Source: Escherichia phage vB-Eco-KMB36. From it: DNA of 44,710 nt. Where the stretch lies: the sequence record OR525703.1; one strand, 5' to 3'. The notes under the pieces were generated by a model that saw nothing but the letters and a program-made list of their open reading frames with translations, was not told where the DNA came from and did no database searches. Positions 1 through 44,710 of the stretch are shown piece by piece (the stretch's first letter is position 1; the number at the start of each line of letters is the position of its first letter). Both the position numbers and the translations under genes were made by a program.

Positions 1-2
1 GA

Positions 3-1253
3 ATGAGTATTCAGCTATCCGCGCCACAGGCGCTGTTCCTTAATTGCGATAACAAATACAAGGCCTACGTAGGCGGCTTCGGTAGTGGCAAGACGTTTGT
101 CGGCTGCCTTGACCTGCTTACGTTTATGCTCAAGCACCCCGGCACGCGCCTGGGCTACTTCGGCCCGACCTATCCCGCCATCCGTGACATCTTCTACCCA
201 ACATTCGAGGAAGCGGCTAACCTGCTCGGCCTTGATGTGCTGGTTAAATCCGGAGACAAAGAGGTTGTGGTTACTCGCGGTAAGACGGTGCTCGGAACGG
301 TTATCTGCCGCTCTATGGATAACCCCGGCTCGATTGTGGGTTTCAAAATCGCCGCAGCATGCGTGGATGAGCTCGATGTATTGAGCCGAGAAAAAGCTGA
401 ACTGGCATGGAACAAAATCGTCGCCCGTATGCGTCTGGTTATCCCTGGTGTAACCAACCACATCTCCGTCACCACGACGCCGGAAGGGTTCAAGTTCGTC
501 TACGCCAAGTTCAAAGAGAACCCGACACCGAGTTACTCAATGGTGCAGGCTTCCACCCACGAGAACGCGCGATTCCTGCCGCCTGACTACATTAGCTCGC
601 TGACCGAGACTTACCCAGCGCAACTGATTAACGCGTACCTGAATGGGGAGTTCGTTAACCTGACATCCGGCAGCGTGTATTACGCCTACGACCGACGTAA
701 GCATCGCAGCAAAGAGACAATCCAACCGGGCGACACGCTGTACATCGGGCAGGACTTCAACGTTACGAAGAACGCCAGCGCCGTGTATGTGCAACGTAAA
801 GACGGCTGGCACGCGGTAGCAGAACTGAAGGGCCTGTTCGATACGCCAGATACCGTGCGTGTGATTACCGAGAAGTGGAAGTCGCAAGGCCACCGCATCG
901 TCGTTTACCCGGACGCCAGCGGCAAGAACCGCAAAACCAACTCGGCGTCAATCTCCGATATCGCCTTACTACAGCAGGCCGGTTTTGATGTTCGCGCTAA
1001 ATCCGCCAACCCACCGGTTAAAGACCGTGTTTTAGCCGTGAATACCGCGCTGGAAAAAGGTAAGCTGTGGGTTAACGACCACTTATGCCCTGAGATAGCG
1101 AAGACGCTGGAGCAGCAGGCATATGATGATAACGGAGAGCCTGCTAAAGACGGCGTCATTGACCATATGGCGGATGCTCTCGGCTATCCTGTAGTTTATG
1201 AGATGCCGGTGGTTAAACCAGTAATCAACATCCCGGTGACTTTCGCACTTTAA
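3..1253 (+). CDS. terminase large subunit
   Basis: 416-aa ORF with N-terminal P-loop GGFGSGKT; lies directly upstream of the portal gene; begins at window edge so true start uncertain. Confidence 0.75.
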   Translation: MSIQLSAPQALFLNCDNKYKAYVGGFGSGKTFVGCLDLLTFMLKHPGTRLGYFGPTYPAIRDIFYPTFEEAANLLGLDVLVKSGDKEVVVTRGKTVLGTVICRSMDNPGSIVGFKIAAACVDELDVLSREKAELAWNKIVARMRLVIPGVTNHISVTTTPEGFKFVYAKFKENPTPSYSMVQASTHENARFLPPDYISSLTETYPAQLINAYLNGEFVNLTSGSVYYAYDRRKHRSKETIQPGDTLYIGQDFNVTKNASAVYVQRKDGWHAVAELKGLFDTPDTVRVITEKWKSQGHRIVVYPDASGKNRKTNSASISDIALLQQAGFDVRAKSANPPVKDRVLAVNTALEKGKLWVNDHLCPEIAKTLEQQAYDDNGEPAKDGVIDHMADALGYPVVYEMPVVKPVINIPVTFAL

Positions 1254-2783: not shown

Positions 2784-4754
2784 ATGCTATTAACTTTAGC
2801 GCCACAGGGTTCATCTATGAGCTTACTTACATCTCTAATCAGCCACCAGATATGGCTGCAACGCACTGCATCCGGTGAGGTGAAAGACCTCGCGCCGTTC
2901 ATTAAGGAGATGCGGGACGAAATAAAACGGCAGGTGCTGTTATTCGGCGACGACGGGCGAAGCACCGCGCGACTGAATAAACTGTTACGCGACCTTGAAG
3001 AAGCACTTACCGCGCTTACCGGTGACTGGCGGACAAAGCTGACGGAAGACCTTAAGGAGCTTGCAGCGTATGAGGCTGAGTGGAATGTGAAGACACTCAC
3101 GGCTAACGTTAATGCGGAATTTGTTACCCCGACCGCTGAACAGGTGTGGTCCGCCGCCGAGTTTCAGCCATTATCATTAAGCGACAAGCCAGTTGACTTC
3201 ACTAAGCTGATGTCGGGCTGGGGGGAAACAGAAGTCGCGCGCCTTGTAACAGGCGTTAAGATGGGCTTTGTACAAGGCCAGACAACACGGCAGATTGTTA
3301 AGAATGTTGTTGGTGCTGGTGGTTTGGCGGACATTTCAGAACGTAACGCGGCTACTGTAATCCGCACCGCGCTGTCTCATGTATCCAACGAGGCCCGTAA
3401 CGAGACGTACCGCCAGAACGACGACATCATCGAGAAGTACGAGTGGGTGTCGACGCTGGACAGCCGTACCAGTACAACGTGTTTCACGGCTGAAACAGAA
3501 TTAGCGCCCATCGCGGGGATGGACGCGGTAATGCGCGGACTCTATTCAGGAAAAATCCTTACCATCGAACTTTCCAACGGCGAGAAGTTCAGTGGCACCC
3601 CGAAACACCCTGTACTCACGCAATACGGATGGACTCCGCTTGATGAACTCGACCCAACTAAGCATGTCTTGTATACCACTGTTGACAAAGTGACTGTGCT
3701 CGAAACAGTGAAGAACATAAACATGCCAGCCAGAGCGGATTATATTTTTAATACGCTCGCTGATTTCCCCATCAGGAAAATGGTAAGCACGAGTCCCGCG
3801 GCAACAGATTTCTATGGCGATGGAGTGGGACTCAATGGCAAAATCGACATTGTACGGGCCGATTGCAAACTGCGGAACTACGTCCACGCCAGCGGAATTA
3901 AACAATTCAAAAGCGAGGGTTTCAGTCTTATTCATAGCGCCGCTTTGCTGTCGGACGATAGCTCTGGCGATTTTCTCCTCCGGGGTGAATGTCCTGTGAG
4001 TGTGCCCGCGCTTAGCGAGGCCAAGTGTTTTGACCATAGAATAGAAAACTGTTTTGCTTACTTGGGTCCTTCTTATGCACTCAATAGGCGGGACGCCGGA
4101 CTCGAACAATTCTATAGCCCTTTTTTGATTCAAAATGGTGTCGTTAGAAACCCAACCACGGGGTCGATCATGCATGAGTCCGAGCTTCTTGAGAAATGTT
4201 GTTACCGTGGTGGTAGTGACGCCGTAATTCTTGGCTATGATGCTGGCGGGAGTGCCATCTCGGTACAAAGAACAAATATCATCCGCATAAGCGTCGAGTT
4301 TAGAACGTGCCATGTTTATACCCTCTCTAGTAGTCAAGGATATTATACAGCAGGTAGTGCGATAGTCAAGAATTGCAGGGCCAGAGACGGAATGACGTGG
4401 GAAATCGGTAAAGGACCGATGCCCCCGGCCCATTTTGGGTGCAGAAGTACTACCGCACCAGTAATCAGTTCCGAGTTCGACTTCCTCGATAAAGGCGCGA
4501 AACGCGCAGCTAAGGGCGCAGAAGGTGGTACCCAGGTAAGCGCAGACACCACCTATTACGAGTTCCTTAAACAACAACCGGCATGGTTTCAGGATGAAGC
4601 ATTAGGGCCGGTTCGCGGTAAGATTTTCCGTAACAGCGGTATATCGCCGGAAGAGTTTCGCGTAATATCTGTAGATGGTTTCGGGAATCCGCTGACGCTT
4701 AAGCAGATGGCGGAACTCGATAAACGTGTTGCTGATTATCTGAAAGAGGATTAA
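2784..4754 (+). CDS. head morphogenesis protein (SPP1 gp7 / Mu F-like) containing an in-frame intein
   Basis: Extein motifs DSRTSTT...CRARDGMTWEIGKGPMPPAHFGCRS match the Mu F/gp7 signature once residues 233-530 are removed; alternative start ATG 2817. Confidence 0.7.
   Translation: MLLTLAPQGSSMSLLTSLISHQIWLQRTASGEVKDLAPFIKEMRDEIKRQVLLFGDDGRSTARLNKLLRDLEEALTALTGDWRTKLTEDLKELAAYEAEWNVKTLTANVNAEFVTPTAEQVWSAAEFQPLSLSDKPVDFTKLMSGWGETEVARLVTGVKMGFVQGQTTRQIVKNVVGAGGLADISERNAATVIRTALSHVSNEARNETYRQNDDIIEKYEWVSTLDSRTSTTCFTAETELAPIAGMDAVMRGLYSGKILTIELSNGEKFSGTPKHPVLTQYGWTPLDELDPTKHVLYTTVDKVTVLETVKNINMPARADYIFNTLADFPIRKMVSTSPAATDFYGDGVGLNGKIDIVRADCKLRNYVHASGIKQFKSEGFSLIHSAALLSDDSSGDFLLRGECPVSVPALSEAKCFDHRIENCFAYLGPSYALNRRDAGLEQFYSPFLIQNGVVRNPTTGSIMHESELLEKCCYRGGSDAVILGYDAGGSAISVQRTNIIRISVEFRTCHVYTLSSSQGYYTAGSAIVKNCRARDGMTWEIGKGPMPPAHFGCRSTTAPVISSEFDFLDKGAKRAAKGAEGGTQVSADTTYYEFLKQQPAWFQDEALGPVRGKIFRNSGISPEEFRVISVDGFGNPLTLKQMAELDKRVADYLKED
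3480..4373 (+). mobile_element. intein (Hint domain, about 298 aa) in head morphogenesis protein
   Basis: Starts CFTAETEL, block B GTPKHPVLTQYGW, C-terminal VYTLSSSQGYYTAGSAIVKN followed by Cys+1; penultimate Lys instead of His. Confidence 0.6.
3546..4313 (-). CDS. putative homing endonuclease (tandem HTH + Vsr/DUF559-like nuclease) encoded antisense inside the intein
   Basis: 256-aa ORF from ATG at 4313 with upstream GAGAGGG; HTH-like TPASIIAKNYGVTTTTVTTFLKK and VSKTVFYSMVKTLGL; nuclease-like PYNVDFAIESHSIAIEI and ERIKNIIRSGWHVYVL; lies entirely within intein 3480..4373. Confidence 0.45.
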   Translation of the reverse strand: MARSKLDAYADDICSLYRDGTPASIIAKNYGVTTTTVTTFLKKLGLMHDRPRGWVSNDTILNQKRAIELFESGVPPIECIRRTQVSKTVFYSMVKTLGLAKRGHTHRTFTPEEKIARAIVRQQSGAMNKTETLAFELFNSAGVDVVPQFAIGPYNVDFAIESHSIAIEICCRGTRAYHFPDGEISERIKNIIRSGWHVYVLHCFEHSHFVNSGIQDMLSWVEFIKRSPSVLREYRVFRGATELLAVGKFDGKDFS

Positions 4755-5218: not shown

Positions 5219-5241
5219 GAGGCCCCGAAAGGGGCTTTTTT
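5219..5241 (+). terminator. rho-independent terminator
   Basis: GGCCCCGAAAGGGGC hairpin followed by TTTTTT. Confidence 0.7.
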
Positions 5242-5305
5242 AATGTCTGTGATTATTCCAGTTATTCCGCTCAATTGTAAATGTTGGAATAAACTATTCG
5301 AATAG

Positions 5306-5334
5306 TTGACTTTTCACTAAAAATGTGCTAAGCT
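5306..5334 (+). promoter_or_regulatory. sigma70-like promoter (copy 1 of repeated element)
   Basis: TTGACT, 17-nt spacer, TGcTAAGCT extended -10; CTATTCGAATAG palindrome abuts the -35. Confidence 0.5.
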
Positions 5335-5340
5335 CCACCT

Positions 5341-5541
5341 GAGCTTGTGAAGTATGAACAAGCGACCGCGGCGCGGGCAGGTAACGGAGCGGGACGTAAG
5401 TCCTGAGTGTAGTTACGCTGACGCGTTCGGAAGGGCCATACTCTATTGCTTGTGTAAAAAGTAACTGGTTTACTGAGATTACGCCGTTTCTATGTTTAAA
5501 TGATAAGGACTAGCGCCCCGCTTTATGGCGGGGCTTTACTT
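5341..5541 (+). ncRNA. candidate small RNA of about 200 nt, paralog A
   Basis: No ORF; bounded by the promoter and a GCCCCG/CGGGGC hairpin plus U-tract at 5513..5541; conserved 5-prime hairpin GCTTGT..ACAAGC and box TTCGGAAGGGCCATA shared with the copy at 36997..37210. Confidence 0.35.
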
Positions 5542-5558: not shown

Positions 5559-5945
5559 ATGAATCTTAAAGCAACTGTCGTAGCGGGCGCATGTTTCATA
5601 ATCCTGGCTTACGCACACGGCATCTACCAGTATCGCATCGGCTGGAACGAAGGCCGGGCGAATCTCGTTTCGCAGCAACAGCAGAAAGCACAGGCTGAGT
5701 TAGCGAAGAAAACACAACGGCAGCAGCAGGATGAATCAAAGGCCGCGGCAGCTGACAACGAAGGCAAGACGAAATCAGAGGTGATTACCCGTGAAGTCGT
5801 TAAGTACATTAAAACGCCTGGTCGCAGCGTGTGCACTTTCGACGATGCTCGCGTCCTGCTCAAGTCCCGCGCCGTCGCAAACGCCAATTCCATCCCCGGA
5901 TACGACGATGATGCAGCCTCCGTGCAAACTGGCGCCGCCAAGTAG
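5559..5945 (+). CDS. Rz-like i-spanin
   Basis: N-terminal transmembrane segment VVAGACFIILAYA then Q/A/K-rich coiled-coil region; Rz1-like ORF embedded in +1 frame. Confidence 0.55.
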   Translation: MNLKATVVAGACFIILAYAHGIYQYRIGWNEGRANLVSQQQQKAQAELAKKTQRQQQDESKAAAADNEGKTKSEVITREVVKYIKTPGRSVCTFDDARVLLKSRAVANANSIPGYDDDAASVQTGAAK

Positions 5946-12385: not shown

Positions 12386-12390
12386 GGAAA

Positions 12391-12416
12391 AGGCCCCGAA
12401 AGGGGCCTTACTATTT
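12391..12416. terminator. terminator hairpin shared by convergent genes
   Basis: AGGCCCCGAAAGGGGCCT hairpin between the major tail gene end and the minus-strand HNH gene end. Confidence 0.6.
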
Positions 12417-12899
12417 ACCGTGGTTCTCGTGGAACCCTAAATCTCTTTCAGCAACTCTCCTCGCGGCAACTGCATCTAGTAGCGTTTTAAAGCATCCGAT
12501 GTGTGTTTTTACGTTATTGTTGAATATCTGTGCGTACCACAACCTTTCTTTCGCGTTCCAGTAAACCCCGGTTACTCCTGATTTATTATTACGCTGTTTT
12601 GACATATTTTTATGGTTTTCCGCATTGGACTTTTTAGCTAAGTTAAGCGGTCTATTGTTTATTCGGTTATGGTCTAGATGGTCTATTTGATCTGACGAGG
12701 TTAGCTTATCGTTAGGATTGTTTAAGTCCCAAGCTATACGGTGCGCCGCGTGCCATTTACCTCTGAAAAATATCCTTCTATATCCGTCTCGCTGTACAGT
12801 ACCTGCCTCCTCTCCAGCCTTAGCCCTCCCGGAACGTGTTACTCTGTTAAATATCCTTCCTGAAATTAAGTCGTATATGAAAAATTCATTCCAGTCCAT
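12411..12899 (-). CDS. HNH homing endonuclease with AP2 DNA-binding domain
   Basis: IDHLDHNRINNRPLNL HNH core and AP2-like SGVTGVYWNAKERLWYAQI; start taken at the ATG 6 nt after AGGAG. Confidence 0.75.
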   Translation of the reverse strand: MDWNEFFIYDLISGRIFNRVTRSGRAKAGEEAGTVQRDGYRRIFFRGKWHAAHRIAWDLNNPNDKLTSSDQIDHLDHNRINNRPLNLAKKSNAENHKNMSKQRNNKSGVTGVYWNAKERLWYAQIFNNNVKTHIGCFKTLLDAVAARRVAERDLGFHENHGK

Positions 12900-12918
12900 A
12901 ATCATCTCCTGTTGCGAT

Positions 12919-12943
12919 AAGGCCCCGAAAGGGGCCTTTTTCT
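12919..12943 (+). terminator. terminator-like hairpin
   Basis: AAGGCCCCGAAAGGGGCC followed by TTTTTCT on the plus strand. Confidence 0.5.
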
Positions 12944-13173
12944 CACTCATCAATATTACTCCTGTACTCCCGTAACTTCTCCAGACTTTCAATTGCTTCA
13001 GCTAAGTCTGTTCCGGTGTCCTTGTGGCCACGCAAGCCCATACACAACAGCTTCTTCAATGCGTGTTGCAACGCCGGGTCGCGGATGTCGAAGGCACGCA
13101 GCACATCGTAAACGTCTACCGTCATAGTGCTGCCGTGGGTATTTGTCATTGTGCGGTTGTATTTATTTGTCAC
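12943..13173 (-). CDS. hypothetical protein
   Basis: 76-aa ORF, coupled to neighbours. Confidence 0.4.
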   Translation of the reverse strand: MTNKYNRTMTNTHGSTMTVDVYDVLRAFDIRDPALQHALKKLLCMGLRGHKDTGTDLAEAIESLEKLREYRSNIDE

Positions 13174-13363
13174 TGTTAACTCTCTTAAATCGGGCTATGC
13201 CTGACTCGTTAATGTTGCCTATTTCAAAGAAGCTGCGATATTTAGGCGAATACATTCTTACGTCGCCATTCTCTAGGGTGACCCCTTCATATACAGCGCC
13301 TACTTCGAATCCATTTTTCTCCGCGTACGGACTCACATCGGTGCATTCATACATATCTTTCAT
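13163..13363 (-). CDS. hypothetical protein
   Basis: 66-aa ORF. Confidence 0.4.
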   Translation of the reverse strand: MKDMYECTDVSPYAEKNGFEVGAVYEGVTLENGDVRMYSPKYRSFFEIGNINESGIARFKRVNSDK

Positions 13364-14490
13364 CCCAGCATCTCCGGTGAAATAGTTAAACGTGCGACCT
13401 CGCCATATTCGGCACTATAGGTAATTACATTTGCACTACGACCTGACATCCACCCGCCGCGGGAGGCGTAGGCGTCTTTAGCTGCTAAGGTGCGGTGTTG
13501 CTCAACAATCATGTTACGGCTTTCTACAATCTTCTGGTGGTGTAGGTGGCCTACGTGGGCGTAGCTGTAAACGCTCTCTCCGAACGCTTTGCGGAACTTG
13601 GCAATCATAACTGGCTCGATAGCGTCGAATCGTGCTTTATGCCCGTGGTGGAAGAACAGCGTCGTTTTGCCGTGTTGAACCATCTTGTAAACATCCGGCG
13701 ACGTATCGACGAACACACGCGGCTCATTGTCGTACAGCGTACTGAACATCTCAGCCAGCCAAATCATCCCGCTTTCGTCGTGGTTCCCTTGCACGATAAG
13801 CAAGCGAACAGTTTTATGCTTAACCAGTGCCATATCGACAACACGGCGTACCATACGAATCATGTAGCGGACCAGTTTCTGATAACGAGTGTCCGCATCA
13901 AGAACATGACCACTCGCTGGCGTAACCGCATCCAGACTATCGAAGTGCGCGAAGTCACCCAGCAGGTTAATAACCCCAGTTCCTGCATCTGGTGCTTTTT
14001 GAAATGCAGCATCAAACCAGCGGGAGAACAGGTCTTCCGCAATCTTCATGTCCCAGTCGTCGCCGCTCTCGTCGGCCCAGGCCAGCATACCGAGATGGAA
14101 ATCAGACACGGTGTAAAGATTGAGCAGCTTGTCGTCGCGTTTGGCACGGGCCGCTTTAACCGGTGCAACGGGAGTAATCTCTGACTTCATGCCTTCGATT
14201 ATGGCTTTCATCAATTCAACCTGACGTTCGGCGTCAGTATCTGTCTTAACCCATTGCAGTTTAGTGTTGCCGAACTCGTCCACAAGCGACGACGTTCCTT
14301 TAATCTTGTAGCCGTCCGGGACAAGATGGCTAACGTCACGACCGTGACCTACGCCTTTCTTCGCCAGCTTCGCTTTACGGATACGAATAACTCGGTCTGA
14401 GATGCCGTATTTACGGGATATGTCGATAATCTTTGTTCCGGCGTTCAATTCTTCCTGTAACTGTTCGTCGGTTATTTTAATCTGGGCCAT
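13360..14490 (-). CDS. calcineurin-like metallophosphoesterase with N-terminal HTH
   Basis: Motifs VSDFHLG, GDFAHFD, GNHDE, HHGH, GHLHH; N-terminal IDISRKYGISDRVIRIRK HTH-like segment. Confidence 0.7.
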   Translation of the reverse strand: MAQIKITDEQLQEELNAGTKIIDISRKYGISDRVIRIRKAKLAKKGVGHGRDVSHLVPDGYKIKGTSSLVDEFGNTKLQWVKTDTDAERQVELMKAIIEGMKSEITPVAPVKAARAKRDDKLLNLYTVSDFHLGMLAWADESGDDWDMKIAEDLFSRWFDAAFQKAPDAGTGVINLLGDFAHFDSLDAVTPASGHVLDADTRYQKLVRYMIRMVRRVVDMALVKHKTVRLLIVQGNHDESGMIWLAEMFSTLYDNEPRVFVDTSPDVYKMVQHGKTTLFFHHGHKARFDAIEPVMIAKFRKAFGESVYSYAHVGHLHHQKIVESRNMIVEQHRTLAAKDAYASRGGWMSGRSANVITYSAEYGEVARLTISPEMLG

Positions 14491-14721: not shown

Positions 14722-14762
14722 GGTGTAGCTCCTGTTTGAGTTAACATTGTTGGTGTAAGTGA

Positions 14763-14791
14763 ATAGTATCCTATTATGTTGGGGTGTGCAA
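14763..14791 (-). promoter_or_regulatory. sigma70-like promoter with AATAG-N4-CTATT palindrome
   Basis: Minus strand reads TTGCAC, 17 nt, TACTAT; near-identical to the plus-strand promoter at 37252..37280. Confidence 0.5.
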
Positions 14792-14898
14792 GTAATGTGT
14801 TAGAATTATTTTGCGCCTAGTGTCGCACACGAAAAGCGGGTGGTTCCCGTCTGGCGCATTTTCCTTAACCTGTAACCTCTTAACCAAAGGATTAAAGA

Positions 14899-24281: not shown

Positions 24282-24288
24282 ATAAACA

Positions 24289-24312
24289 AGGCCCCTAACG
24301 GGGCCTTTTTCT
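24289..24312 (+). terminator. rho-independent terminator
   Basis: AGGCCCCTAACGGGGCCT followed by TTTTCT. Confidence 0.7.
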
Positions 24313-26286: not shown

Positions 26287-26574
26287 TTAACTATAATAGC
26301 TCGCTATTAGGTCGTCAACCTGTTTAAACGAACCAACGACAAAAACATTTGCACCACGTTTACGCATCCGCTCGTGCTCTCGTAACTGGTGCGGGTCCGG
26401 CTTCGTGTTTTCGTCTTTCTTAACCTCGACGAACCAGATGATGCCACCAGGGAGAATTACCAGCAGGTCAGGAGCTCCCACTCTATTTTCGTACGACAAT
26501 TTGCGTACAAGGCCCCCCATGGCCTCGAATCGCTCTTTTGCGTATTTCTGTACGCGGCCCTCTTTAGTCGCCAT
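26287..26574 (-). CDS. VRR-NUC-like nuclease
   Basis: PDLLVILPGG...WFVEVK pattern. Confidence 0.55.
   Translation of the reverse strand: MATKEGRVQKYAKERFEAMGGLVRKLSYENRVGAPDLLVILPGGIIWFVEVKKDENTKPDPHQLREHERMRKRGANVFVVGSFKQVDDLIASYYS
26290..26318 (-). promoter_or_regulatory. sigma70-like promoter with AATAG-N4-CTATT palindrome
   Basis: Minus strand reads TTGACG, 17 nt, TATAGT; palindrome at 26295..26308. Confidence 0.5.
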
Positions 26575-31507: not shown

Positions 31508-31562
31508 TTCTCGATTCCTCAGTTTTCAGTTTACTCCGGGAGCTGCCCGGCCAGTGATTAGA

Positions 31563-31591
31563 ACTATAATAGCTAACTATTCAGGTGTCAA
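31563..31591 (-). promoter_or_regulatory. sigma70-like promoter with AATAG-N4-CTATT palindrome
   Basis: Minus strand reads TTGACA, 17 nt, TATAGT; palindrome at 31568..31581. Confidence 0.55.
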
Positions 31592-33650: not shown

Positions 33651-33681
33651 TTGTTTCTCTCCTCTCGTTTGGTATGGGCTA

Positions 33682-33710
33682 ACTATAATAGCGAACTATT
33701 CACATGTCAA
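33682..33710 (-). promoter_or_regulatory. sigma70-like promoter with AATAG-N4-CTATT palindrome
   Basis: Minus strand reads TTGACA, 17 nt, TATAGT; palindrome at 33687..33700. Confidence 0.55.
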
Positions 33711-36961: not shown

Positions 36962-36990
36962 TTGACTTTTCACTAAAAATGTGCTAAGCT
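36962..36990 (+). promoter_or_regulatory. sigma70-like promoter (copy 2 of repeated element)
   Basis: TTGACT, 17 nt, TGcTAAGCT; identical to the promoter at 5306..5334. Confidence 0.5.
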
Positions 36991-36996
36991 CGTCCT

Positions 36997-37210
36997 GAGC
37001 TTGTGAAGTATGAACAAGCGACCGCGGTGCGCGGCAGGCGAAACGAGCACGTCTAGACGTGTGGAGTGAGGCTCGCTGGCGCATTCGGAAGGGCCATAGT
37101 CTATTGTAATTCCCGCCTAGGTATCTAAGTTACTGATTTGCCGTAGGTTAGAACCGCAAGCTCACTCACTCACTCTTGGTGCCTTCGGCACCACGTTCGT
37201 TTCGTTTCGC
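36997..37210 (+). ncRNA. candidate small RNA of about 210 nt, paralog B
   Basis: No ORF; shares promoter, 5-prime hairpin and TTCGGAAGGGCCATA box with 5341..5541; ends at GGTGCC-TTC-GGCACC hairpin plus U-rich tract. Confidence 0.35.
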
Positions 37211-37251: not shown

Positions 37252-37280
37252 TTGCACACCCCAATATAATAGGATACTAT
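37252..37280 (+). promoter_or_regulatory. sigma70-like promoter with AATAG-N4-CTATT palindrome
   Basis: TTGCAC, 17 nt, TACTAT; palindrome at 37268..37281. Confidence 0.5.
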
Positions 37281-37305
37281 TCACTTATCGAAACGAGACA
37301 GAGGA

Positions 37306-40012: not shown

Positions 40013-40216
40013 TACTGTTCCCCGCCGTAGAAGCTGCTAGCATGGCGCGGTACTACCGAAGAATCGGAAAAGTTCACGGGATTAAAGTGCACAGCTGGTT
40101 CAGGCTTTTCCGCGCTAACTACGAATTGTTTGGGCGCACGTTCACAGCACAGCGGTGCTCTTACGGCTATTGGGAAGGAGTAGGGCGATGGGAAGTATTT
40201 CCTGCGGAGGCCGAAA

Positions 40217-40510
40217 ATGAGCCTCGCAACTGATATCCTGAAACGAAGCGGCCTTGCGCCGCTGTCACCGAGAGCTAAAACACAGATATACAAGCGTCGC
40301 CGTAACGCGCTGTACCCGGAGATTCAGGCCAGACGTAAAGCTGTCCGCGCCTGCGGGTTCCAGAACGGGAAGGCCTTGAACCTCGGTGAGTTTAAAACGC
40401 AGGAACGTGCGGCTATAGCTAATCGGCTATTTAATTACTGGAAATCGCTGGGATACGATGATATTCCGACGAAACCACAGAGACGACAATACATCTGGAG
40501 ACATAAATGA
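40217..40510 (+). CDS. hypothetical basic protein
   Basis: 97-aa ORF. Confidence 0.45.
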   Translation: MSLATDILKRSGLAPLSPRAKTQIYKRRRNALYPEIQARRKAVRACGFQNGKALNLGEFKTQERAAIANRLFNYWKSLGYDDIPTKPQRRQYIWRHK

Positions 40511-41006: not shown

Positions 41007-41258
41007 TTGGATAAATTTACTGAAACAGTGACGGGGTGGCTTCTCGCTGCCGCGCTAGCCGGAGGGGTTATCGGACTACGGCAACATAAGTCTGTTATTT
41101 CTGGCCCCATCGACGGCTTCTGCTTTATCGCAACTGGCTTCACCTGCGCCGTATTCGGCGCACCTCTAGCGGCTCAATGGTTCGGCATTACCGGGGAGCG
41201 TGAAATCGCTCGGCGCACCTCTAGCGGCTCAATGGTTCGGCATTACCGGGGAGCGTGA
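41007..41258 (+). CDS. holin-like membrane protein, truncated by a 55-bp tandem duplication
   Basis: Two hydrophobic helices then frameshifted tail RRTSSGSMVRHYRGA; removing one repeat copy restores a 102-aa three-helix protein ending at 41370. Confidence 0.5.
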   Translation: MDKFTETVTGWLLAAALAGGVIGLRQHKSVISGPIDGFCFIATGFTCAVFGAPLAAQWFGITGEREIARRTSSGSMVRHYRGA

Positions 41259-41265
41259 AATCGCT
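41156..41265. repeat. perfect 55-bp tandem duplication
   Basis: CGGCGCACCTCTAGCGGCTCAATGGTTCGGCATTACCGGGGAGCGTGAAATCGCT occurs twice back to back. Confidence 0.85.
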
Positions 41266-41362
41266 GGTCTGGGTTTCATCATCGCTATTCTCTGGATGCC
41301 TATCTATTCTCGCCTTTCTGGCATCGTCGCCGGAGAATACATCACACGTCGAGGAGGCCCGG

Positions 41363-41635
41363 ATGAATGAGCTATTCTGGCTCGGCGGTATGCTGGCAAT
41401 CGGAGGCACATCGCTGTTTAATGTGTATCATCCCGGCGTTGACGACGGATTATTTGGCCGTGTGCTCTATATCCTGACTGCTATCGTCTGCGCCGCCGGG
41501 TGTATCCACCTGTTACAGGGCAGCATGTCGCCAACGCTGCCCGAGACGTTAATCACATTAGTTGCGCTGCGCCAGATTCGTCAGGCGTGGCTGTCGTATG
41601 GAGGACATAAGCGTGTCTCGAAACATTTCAGATAA
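41363..41635 (+). CDS. holin/antiholin-like two-helix membrane protein
   Basis: MNELFWLGGMLAIGGTSLF and ILTAIVCAAGCIHLL hydrophobic helices; upstream of endolysin. Confidence 0.5.
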   Translation: MNELFWLGGMLAIGGTSLFNVYHPGVDDGLFGRVLYILTAIVCAAGCIHLLQGSMSPTLPETLITLVALRQIRQAWLSYGGHKRVSKHFR

Positions 41636-43776: not shown

Positions 43777-43891
43777 TGAGACTACTAATCATCCCTAACG
43801 CCTGGGCCATCGCTGCGGCTAACGACCATTACGGCGGCGATGGTAAAAGAGCCTCACGACACGGCCTGTATAACTGATTGGAGAGCGAGAG

Positions 43892-44032
43892 ATGAAAAAT
43901 ATTCTGGATAAACTAAGCGACTGGATTACGGCTAAACCATATCGATATTGGATCATTCAATGGCTGCTGAACTGCGTTACGTTCTTCGCCGCGTGTGTTA
44001 CGGTAGCCTTCGTATTTAAGGCTATCTCCTGA
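43892..44032 (+). CDS. hypothetical small membrane protein
   Basis: 46-codon ORF with one hydrophobic helix; RBS GGAGAG; followed by terminator. Confidence 0.35.
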   Translation: MKNILDKLSDWITAKPYRYWIIQWLLNCVTFFAACVTVAFVFKAIS

Positions 44033-44038
44033 CCAACA

Positions 44039-44062
44039 AGCCCTCTACGGAGGGCTTTTCTG
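44039..44062 (+). terminator. rho-independent terminator
   Basis: AGCCCTC-TACG-GAGGGCT followed by TTTTCT. Confidence 0.65.
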
Positions 44063-44155
44063 TACATCCCGCCCAATCCCCTTATATAATCCCTTTAGAC
44101 GCGTAGGGCGCGTCTGGTGCGCTCTGATGGTCAGACGCATATGCAAGGGGATTCT

Positions 44156-44701
44156 ATGAAGCTGAAACTCAAGCAGCCATCGCCAGAGGTGGTGCAAGCT
44201 GCACATGAAGAAGCTGTTAGCGCAAACCGCCGCCGTAAGCGACCACGCGGCAAACAGAGCCTTTATCAATCATCCCGTAATTCCGCCGCGTTGTGGGACC
44301 CGGACTATTGCGACGCGTTAATCGAGTTCTTCGACCGCACGTCATGGGAACTTGTGCCTACCTCCAAAGGCGACGAACGCCCGCTGATTCAGGACAAACC
44401 GCCGTCACTGGCCCGCTTTGCCTTACGCATCGGCGTCACTATCCCGATTATTAAGCTGTGGCTGCGCGAGATTCCCGCATTCGCAGAAGCATGGGAGACA
44501 GCGCAGGCATTGGAAGAGGCATACTTCACTGAGACAGGGGCCGCAGGTATCTCTGCTACGTTTGCCGCTGCGAAACTTGGCCTTGGCAAAGAGAAACCAG
44601 TTGAATCCGCCGAAGAAACGGCACCGACTGAGATTATTTTCAGTGTTGCGGAGCCTGTAGGTAAAATCGTAACAACGAATATGGGCGAGGTAGAGGAATG
44701 A
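44156..44701 (+). CDS. putative terminase small subunit
   Basis: HTH-like SLARFALRIGVTIPIIKLWLREIPAF; ATG 44156 with AAGGGG RBS; assignment by motif and genome-end position only. Confidence 0.4.
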   Translation: MKLKLKQPSPEVVQAAHEEAVSANRRRKRPRGKQSLYQSSRNSAALWDPDYCDALIEFFDRTSWELVPTSKGDERPLIQDKPPSLARFALRIGVTIPIIKLWLREIPAFAEAWETAQALEEAYFTETGAAGISATFAAAKLGLGKEKPVESAEETAPTEIIFSVAEPVGKIVTTNMGEVEE

Positions 44702-44710
44702 GTAAATCCC

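Follow-up and report, generated by a model that had tools for sequence, protein, structure and literature searches.

The subject of this study is a perfect inverted repeat just upstream of terS, the gene for the small terminase subunit, in Escherichia phage vB-Eco-KMB36 (sequence record OR525703.1). The DNA examined, called here the window, is 44,710 nucleotides (nt) in length; it is the complete genome of a phage of the genus Kagunavirus (K1ind/K1G-like E. coli siphophages of the subfamily Guernseyvirinae). The repeat has 7-base pair (bp) arms and is made up of AGACGCG at 44097–44103, a 5-nt spacer, TAGGG, at 44104–44108, and CGCGTCT at 44109–44115; it lies 41–59 nt upstream of the terS ATG at 44156. 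Reading of the sequence bore out both the letters and the coordinates of the original prediction, which had proposed a regulator site or part of the packaging recognition region. The first proposal stands in the broad sense of a cis-acting element between the −10 hexamer and terS; the second is weakly supported, for reasons given below. Comparison with related phages indicated that the palindrome is a real and strongly conserved feature. The explanation that we prefer, tentatively and at somewhat less than even chances, is that it forms the first of two RNA hairpins in a cis-acting 5′ leader RNA, which would protect the 5′ end of the packaging-operon mRNA and set expression of the operon.

The region between the preceding gene and terS contained the following features:

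44032, plus strand: end of an upstream 46-amino acid (aa) open reading frame (ORF)
44038–44064, plus strand: intrinsic terminator of the upstream lysis/small-ORF unit, with stem AAGCCCTC/GAGGGCTT, loop TACG, and T-tract TTTTCTGT; the stem-loop proper is 44038–44057
44061–44090, plus strand: sigma-70-type promoter of the packaging operon, with −35-like TGTACA at 44061–44066, an 18-nt spacer, and −10 TATAAT at 44085–44090
44097–44115, plus strand: hairpin 1, the palindrome, with seven Watson-Crick pairs plus U44104·G44108 and loop AGG
44116, plus strand: unpaired linker base between the hairpins, from RNA folding
44117–44140, plus strand: hairpin 2, composed of GUGCG, bulged C44122, UCUGA, loop UGG, UCAGA, and CGCAU
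44145–44150, plus strand: Shine-Dalgarno (SD) sequence AAGGGG, 5 nt before the terS ATG and unpaired in the minimum-free-energy fold
44156–44701, plus strand: terS, small terminase subunit, 181 aa, matching PHROG 3064 "terminase" with E = 7e-72

The box TATATAAT, noted in the original prediction at 44083–44090, was present, and its 44085–44090 portion is the −10 hexamer TATAAT. In a promoter scan, TGTACA-18-TATAAT scored 10 of 12 matches. Hairpin 1 begins at the predicted transcription start, A44097, 7 nt past the −10 hexamer. It was rejected as an intrinsic terminator, being followed by GGTGCGCTC without a T-run and receiving no call in a terminator scan; the true terminator is the separate hairpin at 44038–44057, which itself was not called by the consensus terminator scan.

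RNA folding of 44097–44165 gave two hairpins one base apart and left the SD and the ATG at 44156 unpaired. The folding energy was −11.0 kcal/mol for hairpin 1 (z = −4.2) and −10.3 kcal/mol for hairpin 2 (z = −2.5). The 44-nt segment that contains both folded into exactly these two hairpins, with −22.4 kcal/mol and z = −3.15. The same two-hairpin architecture was obtained when Jerseyvirus, phiEap-2-like, and L148-like representatives were folded separately. An attenuator-type switch, in which the 3′ arm of hairpin 1 (GCGTCTG) would pair with CAGACGC at 44132–44138, is possible in the window but is not conserved. It was rejected because the change G44134U, found in relatives, is compensated at 44124 and not at 44114.

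For the comparative analysis, upstream regions were gathered by way of the terS protein (IMG/VR and metagenomes), by DNA pattern, and from GenBank phage records, and a covariance model, R1, was built from 12 Kagunavirus and Jerseyvirus sequences. A search of the window with R1 found exactly one copy of the element, at 80.8 bits, the next best score being 9.9 bits. The model likewise found one copy in the full phiEap-2 genome and nothing else there, and one copy in each searched locus of four clades, always directly upstream of terS: Kagunavirus, Jerseyvirus, phiEap-2-like phages, and a distant group consisting of L143, L148, and L142, with L141 carrying it in part. R1 found no element beside the more remote terS homologues that were searched. 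When IMG/VR, metagenomes, and one genome from each bacterial species were scanned, every occurrence of the element was upstream of terS on a contig of Guernseyvirinae type; the remaining DNA-pattern matches in those scans were chance matches in unrelated bacteria. A complete Jerseyvirus-type double hairpin (L213, 73 bits) was also seen on the minus strand at about 4452–4500 of NZ_JACVEL010000022.1, a 19-kb contig in the assembly of the Bacteroidota member Taishania pollutisoli CZZ-1; in all likelihood the contig is phage contamination that does not belong to that genome.

The TerS proteins of the phiEap-2-like and L143/L148 clades are only 29–34% identical to that of the window; the 44-nt elements are approximately 80–86% identical. 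When the window was compared with the whole phiEap-2 genome, the element stood out as an island of 78.6% identity, and the adjoining terS could not be aligned at the nucleotide level. The signals around the element were also retained. The promoter spacer cannot be aligned in the other clades, but the −10 hexamer is kept as TACAAT or TATAAT and the −35 as TTGCCT or TTGCCA at 17 nt; conserved −35 and −10 sequences flanking a variable spacer form the pattern of a true sigma-70 promoter. In all four clades the first base pair of hairpin 1 comes 7–9 nt after the last base of the −10 hexamer (6–8 nt between them), and by promoter geometry alone the stem of hairpin 1 is 0–2 nt from the predicted +1. 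An SD-like purine run occurs at the same place in the other clades with a different sequence, GAGAGGA or ACAGGAGA. The stem of the upstream terminator covaries, GCCCTC/GAGGGC becoming GCCCGC/GCGGGC in the Jerseyvirus and phiEap-2 clades, and its loops vary freely.

Base pairing was then examined in a model-based alignment of 17 distinct sequences. Standard pairs accounted for 99.6% of the pair cells, compared with 14–57% when the partners were slid by 1–3 columns; in hairpin 1, 100% of the cells were paired (alignment A5). Two pairs had changed on both sides: 44103–44109 in hairpin 1 (its seventh pair), from G-C to U·G, and 44124–44134 in hairpin 2, from C-G to A-U, the latter dividing the distinct sequences 8 versus 9. 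Five pairs had changed on one side only, and every such change gave G·U; in hairpin 1 these were pairs 3, 4, and 5. In phiEap-2-type sequences, a 2-nt insertion opposite the bulge of hairpin 2 pairs with the former bulge base. All four of the clade-fixed stem differences preserve pairing in plus-strand RNA. Two of the four, C to U changes giving G·U, break the symmetry of the DNA and would be A·C mismatches on the minus strand; this strand-specific argument is suggestive of RNA as the active form. Variation is clustered in the linker (G, A, C, or U at 44116), the bulge, the first loop positions, and the stretch after hairpin 2, and the loop cores, GGG and UGG, are nearly invariant. Insertions and deletions are confined to the discriminator, the bulge, and the region 3′ of hairpin 2. 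Their lengths of 1–3 nt between clades exclude a conserved ORF on either strand, such as the 74-aa minus-strand ORF at 44045–44269.

These substitutions also bear on the third half-site, AGACGCA, that had been proposed at 44133–44139. The string is there, but it forms the 3′ arm of hairpin 2, a separate hairpin, and covaries with its partner in that hairpin. The third AGACGC has become ATACGC in three clades, and the change of G44134 to U in Jerseyvirus and phiEap-2-like phages is matched by a change of C44124 to A. Because the resemblance to AGACGC is lost while the pairing of hairpin 2 is kept, we conclude that AGACGCA is not a third protein-binding copy.

The strength of selection was estimated from nucleotide diversity among 34 distinct Kagunavirus sequences. 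The diversity was 0.006 in hairpin 1 and 0.025 in hairpin 2, where it came mainly from a G/A polymorphism at 44117. The −10 hexamer gave 0.000, the promoter spacer 0.10, and the discriminator 0.07; in terS, codon positions 1 and 2 gave 0.02–0.03 and codon position 3 gave 0.24. By these values, the purifying selection on the palindrome is no weaker than that on sites where a change alters the amino acid. The bare 7-bp palindrome, in contrast, is statistically unremarkable. Perfect inverted repeats with arms of 7 bp or more and loops of 3–8 nt numbered 38 in the whole window (nested repeats counted), compared with 19 ± 5 in first-order Markov simulations of the genome, and those with 5-nt loops numbered five, compared with 2.9 expected; the heptamer AGACGCG was not enriched (5 occurrences versus 8 expected). 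It is thus the comparative evidence, conservation together with context, and not the count of inverted repeats, that identifies the palindrome as a real feature. No match at gathering thresholds was found when the whole window was searched against Rfam, and a sensitive Rfam scan of 43800–44400 gave three sub-threshold matches, none overlapping the hairpins.

The sequence of events that we propose is as follows. Transcription of the upstream unit would end at the terminator at 44038–44057, and host RNA polymerase would start again from TGTACA-18-TATAAT, initiating at about A44097. Hairpin 1 would then occupy the extreme 5′ end of the transcript, with 0–2 unpaired nt before it, and the leader would keep the SD at 44145–44150 and the ATG at 44156 single-stranded. 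The paired 5′ end would hinder 5′-end-dependent decay by RppH and RNase E, in the way that the 5′ stem-loops of ompA and papA do, and slowed decay would set the level and lifetime of the terminase and portal message. A trans-acting factor may, in addition, make contact with the G-rich loops (NGG and UGG). Within this picture, the arrangement of the signals, the single copy, the strong purifying selection, the substitutions that keep the stems, and the open ribosome-binding site are observed, and the start site, the action as RNA rather than DNA, and the stabilization of the message are inferred. RNase E is more than 10-fold slower on a base-paired 5′ end, and 5′ stem-loops stabilize the ompA and papA mRNAs (PMC3997798). 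The leader resembles those of ompA and papA in having a stable hairpin 0–2 nt from the 5′ end (here a predicted one) followed by an accessible ribosome-binding site, and in that pairing, partly covarying, has been maintained rather than sequence, within the limits of few independent events and three singleton disruptions. It differs from them in its two tightly spaced hairpins, its invariant G-rich loops, and its predicted rather than mapped start, and it has no sequence similarity to them. Like them, it would act through host RNase E and RppH; its conservation would therefore be independent of the phage's own proteins, and a target in the host would account for an element that stays constant while terS diverges.

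Several observations weigh against this explanation. The covariation comes from only about 10 independent substitution events, and three singleton changes break pairs: L128/L028 carry G44121A, NCTh5 carries T44123C, and phage sidste has C in place of a terminal U. Single transitions taken alone are split into five giving G·U and three giving A·C, which is not significant. The fold of the longer, 69-nt leader has an unremarkable z-score of −1.08. Our literature search turned up no Guernseyvirinae phage with a mapped transcription start, and for that reason the placement of a hairpin at +1 comes entirely from the geometry of the promoter. The loops (GGG and UGG) and most of the stem bases are conserved beyond the needs of a purely structural protector; this excess hints at sequence-specific recognition, which the explanation does not cover. 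Lastly, hairpin 1 of the window is a perfect DNA palindrome centered at approximately +10, the classical geometry of an operator.

This last point leads to the most serious rival, a DNA operator, which we consider unlikely but credible. A dimeric phage or host DNA-binding protein would occupy the duplex palindrome at about +10, with the geometry of lac O1, and would block or delay transcription of the packaging operon. The perfect 7 + 7 bp dyad directly 3′ of an invariant −10 hexamer, the conservation of sequence beyond pairing alone, and the need of a virulent phage that uses host RNA polymerase for some means of timing its late genes are all in keeping with such an operator, and the compensatory change in hairpin 2 preserves the DNA inverted repeat as well as the RNA pair. 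However, the palindrome is present in a single copy, and no related palindrome was found at other promoters of the genome; the operator-like palindrome that the genome does repeat is an unrelated one, AATAGnnnnCTATT, found within four promoter-like repeats. The dyad, perfect in Kagunavirus, is imperfect in the other three clades, with one or two asymmetries that are always in the G·T direction; natural operators can be imperfect. A symmetric dimer site should have conserved arms around a freer center, but here the arms vary and the asymmetric center, GGG, is invariant; the adjoining hairpin 2, with its bulge and compensating insertion, is RNA-like. In comparison with lac O1-type operators, the palindrome of the window thus shares a perfect dyad at about +10 of a sigma-70 promoter, but it is a single site, degenerates in other clades toward RNA pairing, and has an asymmetric center.

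A second rival keeps the RNA and changes its reader. A phage or host RNA-binding protein would recognize the G-rich loops of hairpins 1 and 2 and control the translation or decay of the terS-terL message; translational operators are known for T4 gp32, gp43, and RegA. We regard this as distinctly unlikely. It would explain why the loops are invariant across four clades when those of the neighboring terminator vary freely, and it accords with the position of the element immediately upstream of the ribosome-binding site and with purifying selection as strong as at non-synonymous sites. On the other side, no candidate binding protein emerged, the SD and AUG are not sequestered, and TerS, at approximately 30% identity, is too divergent to be an obvious conserved partner. 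A CsrA site was rejected, as the loops have no GGA motif.

The 44-nt double hairpin might also be a dedicated, sequence-specific control RNA for the packaging genes of the Guernseyvirinae, in which case its loops would be recognized by RNA polymerase itself, which would make it a put-like element in miniature, or else by a conserved phage or host protein; we think this quite improbable. Still more doubtful is antitermination as such, in which the nascent double hairpin (as in HK022 put) or a hairpin plus boxA-like sequence (as in nut) would make RNA polymerase resistant to pausing and termination across the packaging and head operon. The put RNA of HK022, some 65 nt long, forms two hairpins and exerts its effect on RNA polymerase in cis (PMC8632103). 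The leader of the window is, similarly, a promoter-proximal and presumably cis-acting double hairpin with essentially adjacent stems, at the head of a long operon, in a phage without its own RNA polymerase. In contrast to putL and putR, it has only 44 nt, occurs once and not twice in the genome, shows no sequence or model similarity to them and no Rfam match, and has no obvious terminators to override: the unit contains no strong intrinsic terminator before about 5221, and a strong promoter follows at 5306, so that read-through is not obviously needed.

The sequence CGCTCTGA at 44120–44127 matches 7 of the 8 positions of lambda boxA, whose sequence is CGCUCUUA. This string is within the stem of hairpin 2 and is replaced by CGCTATGA or CGTTATGA in other clades. 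A lambda-type nut site was rejected accordingly: the boxA-like string is found only in Kagunavirus and is a stem arm, a hairpin precedes it, and the loop is NGG and not GNRA-like. A better candidate for antitermination is a longer leader, repeated at 5306 and 36962, that is described below.

Part of the original prediction was that the small terminase recognizes the region. On that reading, the protein would bind the AGACGC repeats on DNA as a pac region, and headful packaging series would start nearby. In P22, SPP1, and P1, pac sites typically adjoin or lie in terS, and the pac site of SPP1 overlaps the start of terS. Guernseyvirinae are headful, circularly permuted packagers, with no mapped pac site (PMC10783031, PMC9409062, PMC9825357). 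A location beside terS is typical for pac. Three AGACGC motifs fall within 43 bp of the window, and in having short repeats at the 5′ end of terS, in a headful phage, the region resembles SPP1 pacL/pacC/pacR, P22 pac, and P1 pac. Here, however, the repeats are arms of covarying, RNA-type hairpins, and the third of them is lost in other clades with compensation inside hairpin 2. The element does not follow TerS in its DNA-binding specificity, as judged from helices presumed to bind DNA: it remains about 80–86% identical between phages in which TerS is only about 30% identical and the putative recognition helices differ (TIPIIKLWLRE versus STRALEDWRDK). The clade-fixed differences that yield G·U pairs keep the RNA paired and break the dyad symmetry of the DNA, as fits RNA. 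PhageTerm reports for a Kagunavirus and for Jerseyvirus SeF1 showed no fixed ends (PMC9825357, PMC9409062), and our literature search found no mapped pac site for Kagunavirus or Jerseyvirus phages and no account of this element. Overall, a pac region is very improbable. Physical genome ends at the palindrome, suggested by records that end at 44116 or near 44145, were also rejected; these records are rotated (Bas72 to the annotated GTG/ATG start and Kenya-K5 to the SD) and are circular or linear.

In the weakest alternative, the palindrome would be a functionless product of chance, or would owe its conservation solely to a role as a linker for recombination between gene modules. This accords with the approximately 19 such palindromes expected per genome and with the mosaic boundary and recombinants described in the next paragraphs, but is extremely unlikely given a diversity 40-fold below that of neighboring synonymous sites, a promoter spacer that varies only 15–30 nt away, and pairing-preserving changes across four clades.

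The last 830 nt of the window match approximately 170 phage records at 80–96% identity, and the gene order is that of fEg-Eco19. With most relatives, homology starts at the terminator, at 44032–44036, and the small ORFs upstream differ between phages; on this comparison, 44032–44036 is a module boundary. In LDDK01 (L191), a Kagunavirus-type promoter is joined to a Jerseyvirus-type leader and terS. The Salmonella phage NCTh5 (L192) has a Kagunavirus-type leader and terS. The conserved intergenic block thus appears to serve as a recombination joint between modules.

The packaging unit begins at about 44097, crosses the junction of the window, and ends at the terminator at about 5221–5245; it comprises terS, terL, portal, and the head-morphogenesis genes, and a separate strong promoter follows it at 5306. 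The gene terL starts at the junction of the window end and the window start. To give the window, the circular genome was cut at the terS/terL overlap; GAATGAGTA is found at both ends of the window (1–9 repeats 44696–44704). Its last six bases, AATCCC, differ from the TTCAGC of all relatives, which is also the sequence at 10–15 of the window; the final few bases look like an artifact of the junction. TerS had no Pfam match, and its relatives carry the annotation terminase small subunit.

The start codon of terS also required attention. Possible upstream starts for the ORF are GTG 44117 and ATG 44141, and ATG 44156 is the one preceded by an SD. Many records (e.g., PQ850621, MT074481, and PP856712) annotate terS from the equivalent of 44117, a GTG or ATG within hairpin 2, giving a protein of 194 aa. 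A start codon is present at the 44117 column in all clades, and the AGGG of the hairpin 1 loop might be taken for its SD. We rejected this start on the basis of comparative reading frames and the SD. The frame from 44117 to ATG 44156 is shifted in L086, L144, and L149 and contains a stop in L148; most of the changes within the 13-codon extension are non-synonymous; GTG 44117 is buried between two stable hairpins, which would occlude initiation; and a canonical SD precedes the equivalent of ATG 44156 in every clade. The real start is therefore likely to be ATG 44156, 13 codons downstream of the annotated one, for a protein of 181 aa.

Other features of the window were noted during the analysis. 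The plus strand has two copies, at 5306–5448 and 36962–37106, of a unit in which a strong promoter (TTGACT-17-TAAGCT) precedes a conserved RNA of approximately 108 nt (GAGCUUGUG...UCUAUUG). The first copy heads the head-gene block that begins at 5559, and the second heads the plus-strand early/lysis unit. RNAalifold analysis of 8 distinct copies from related Kagunavirus phages gave a hairpin and a long composite stem with three doubly compensated pairs. No Rfam family matched this RNA. A terminator-like hairpin comes after each copy (5515–5534 and 37177–37193), and the RNA is a candidate for a new regulatory leader, perhaps one acting in antitermination.

A repeat, AACTATAATAGCnnnCTATTnnnnTGTCAA, is present in four copies, at 26289–26318, 31562–31591, 33681–33710, and 37262–37291. 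The first three, on the minus strand, are TTGACA-17-TATAGT promoters of replication genes. The repeats hold the internal operator-like palindrome mentioned above, which is unrelated to that containing AGACGCG. Near-identical terminator hairpins, (A)AGGCCCC GAAA GGGGCCTT, were found at 2757–2775, 5219–5240, 12390–12409, 12919–12938, and 24288–24307, and some of this type flank minus-strand insert genes (12411–14490) inside the structural gene block. At 41155–41264 there is a perfect tandem duplication (2 × 55 bp, 100% identical) in ORFs of the holin region upstream of the lysozyme gene. Its unit length is not a multiple of three, and the frame is split into ORFs 41007–41258, 41200–41370, and 41255–41635; the duplication may be genuine and recent, or it may have arisen in assembly. 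Two other non-coding islands of similarity to phiEap-2, at 14762–14892 (77% over 131 nt, upstream of the tail-gene block from 14899) and at 40216–40245 (93% over 30 nt), may be additional regulatory sites.

We found no described mechanism for the timing of late-gene expression in Kagunavirus and Jerseyvirus phages in the searchable literature. The leader has no catalogued counterpart and is best filed as a modest, lineage-specific regulatory element of the kind represented by 5′-leader stem-loops; in itself it introduces no new principle. Guernseyvirinae phages are under exploration for phage therapy and as synthetic-biology chassis. For such work, the results correct a common annotation error, the placement of the terS start 13 codons too early, inside hairpin 2, and advise caution against treating the palindrome as a pac site when these genomes are engineered or rebooted. 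The start of the packaging operon can now be described as a terminator followed by a promoter and then by a conserved, structured leader. Being short and present once per genome, the element can serve as a marker of the Guernseyvirinae, and the 44-nt leader offers a concrete, mutable target for control of terminase and portal dosage. If it should prove to be a dedicated control RNA, the timing and dosage of terminase and portal would be set by a nascent leader RNA and not by a promoter factor.

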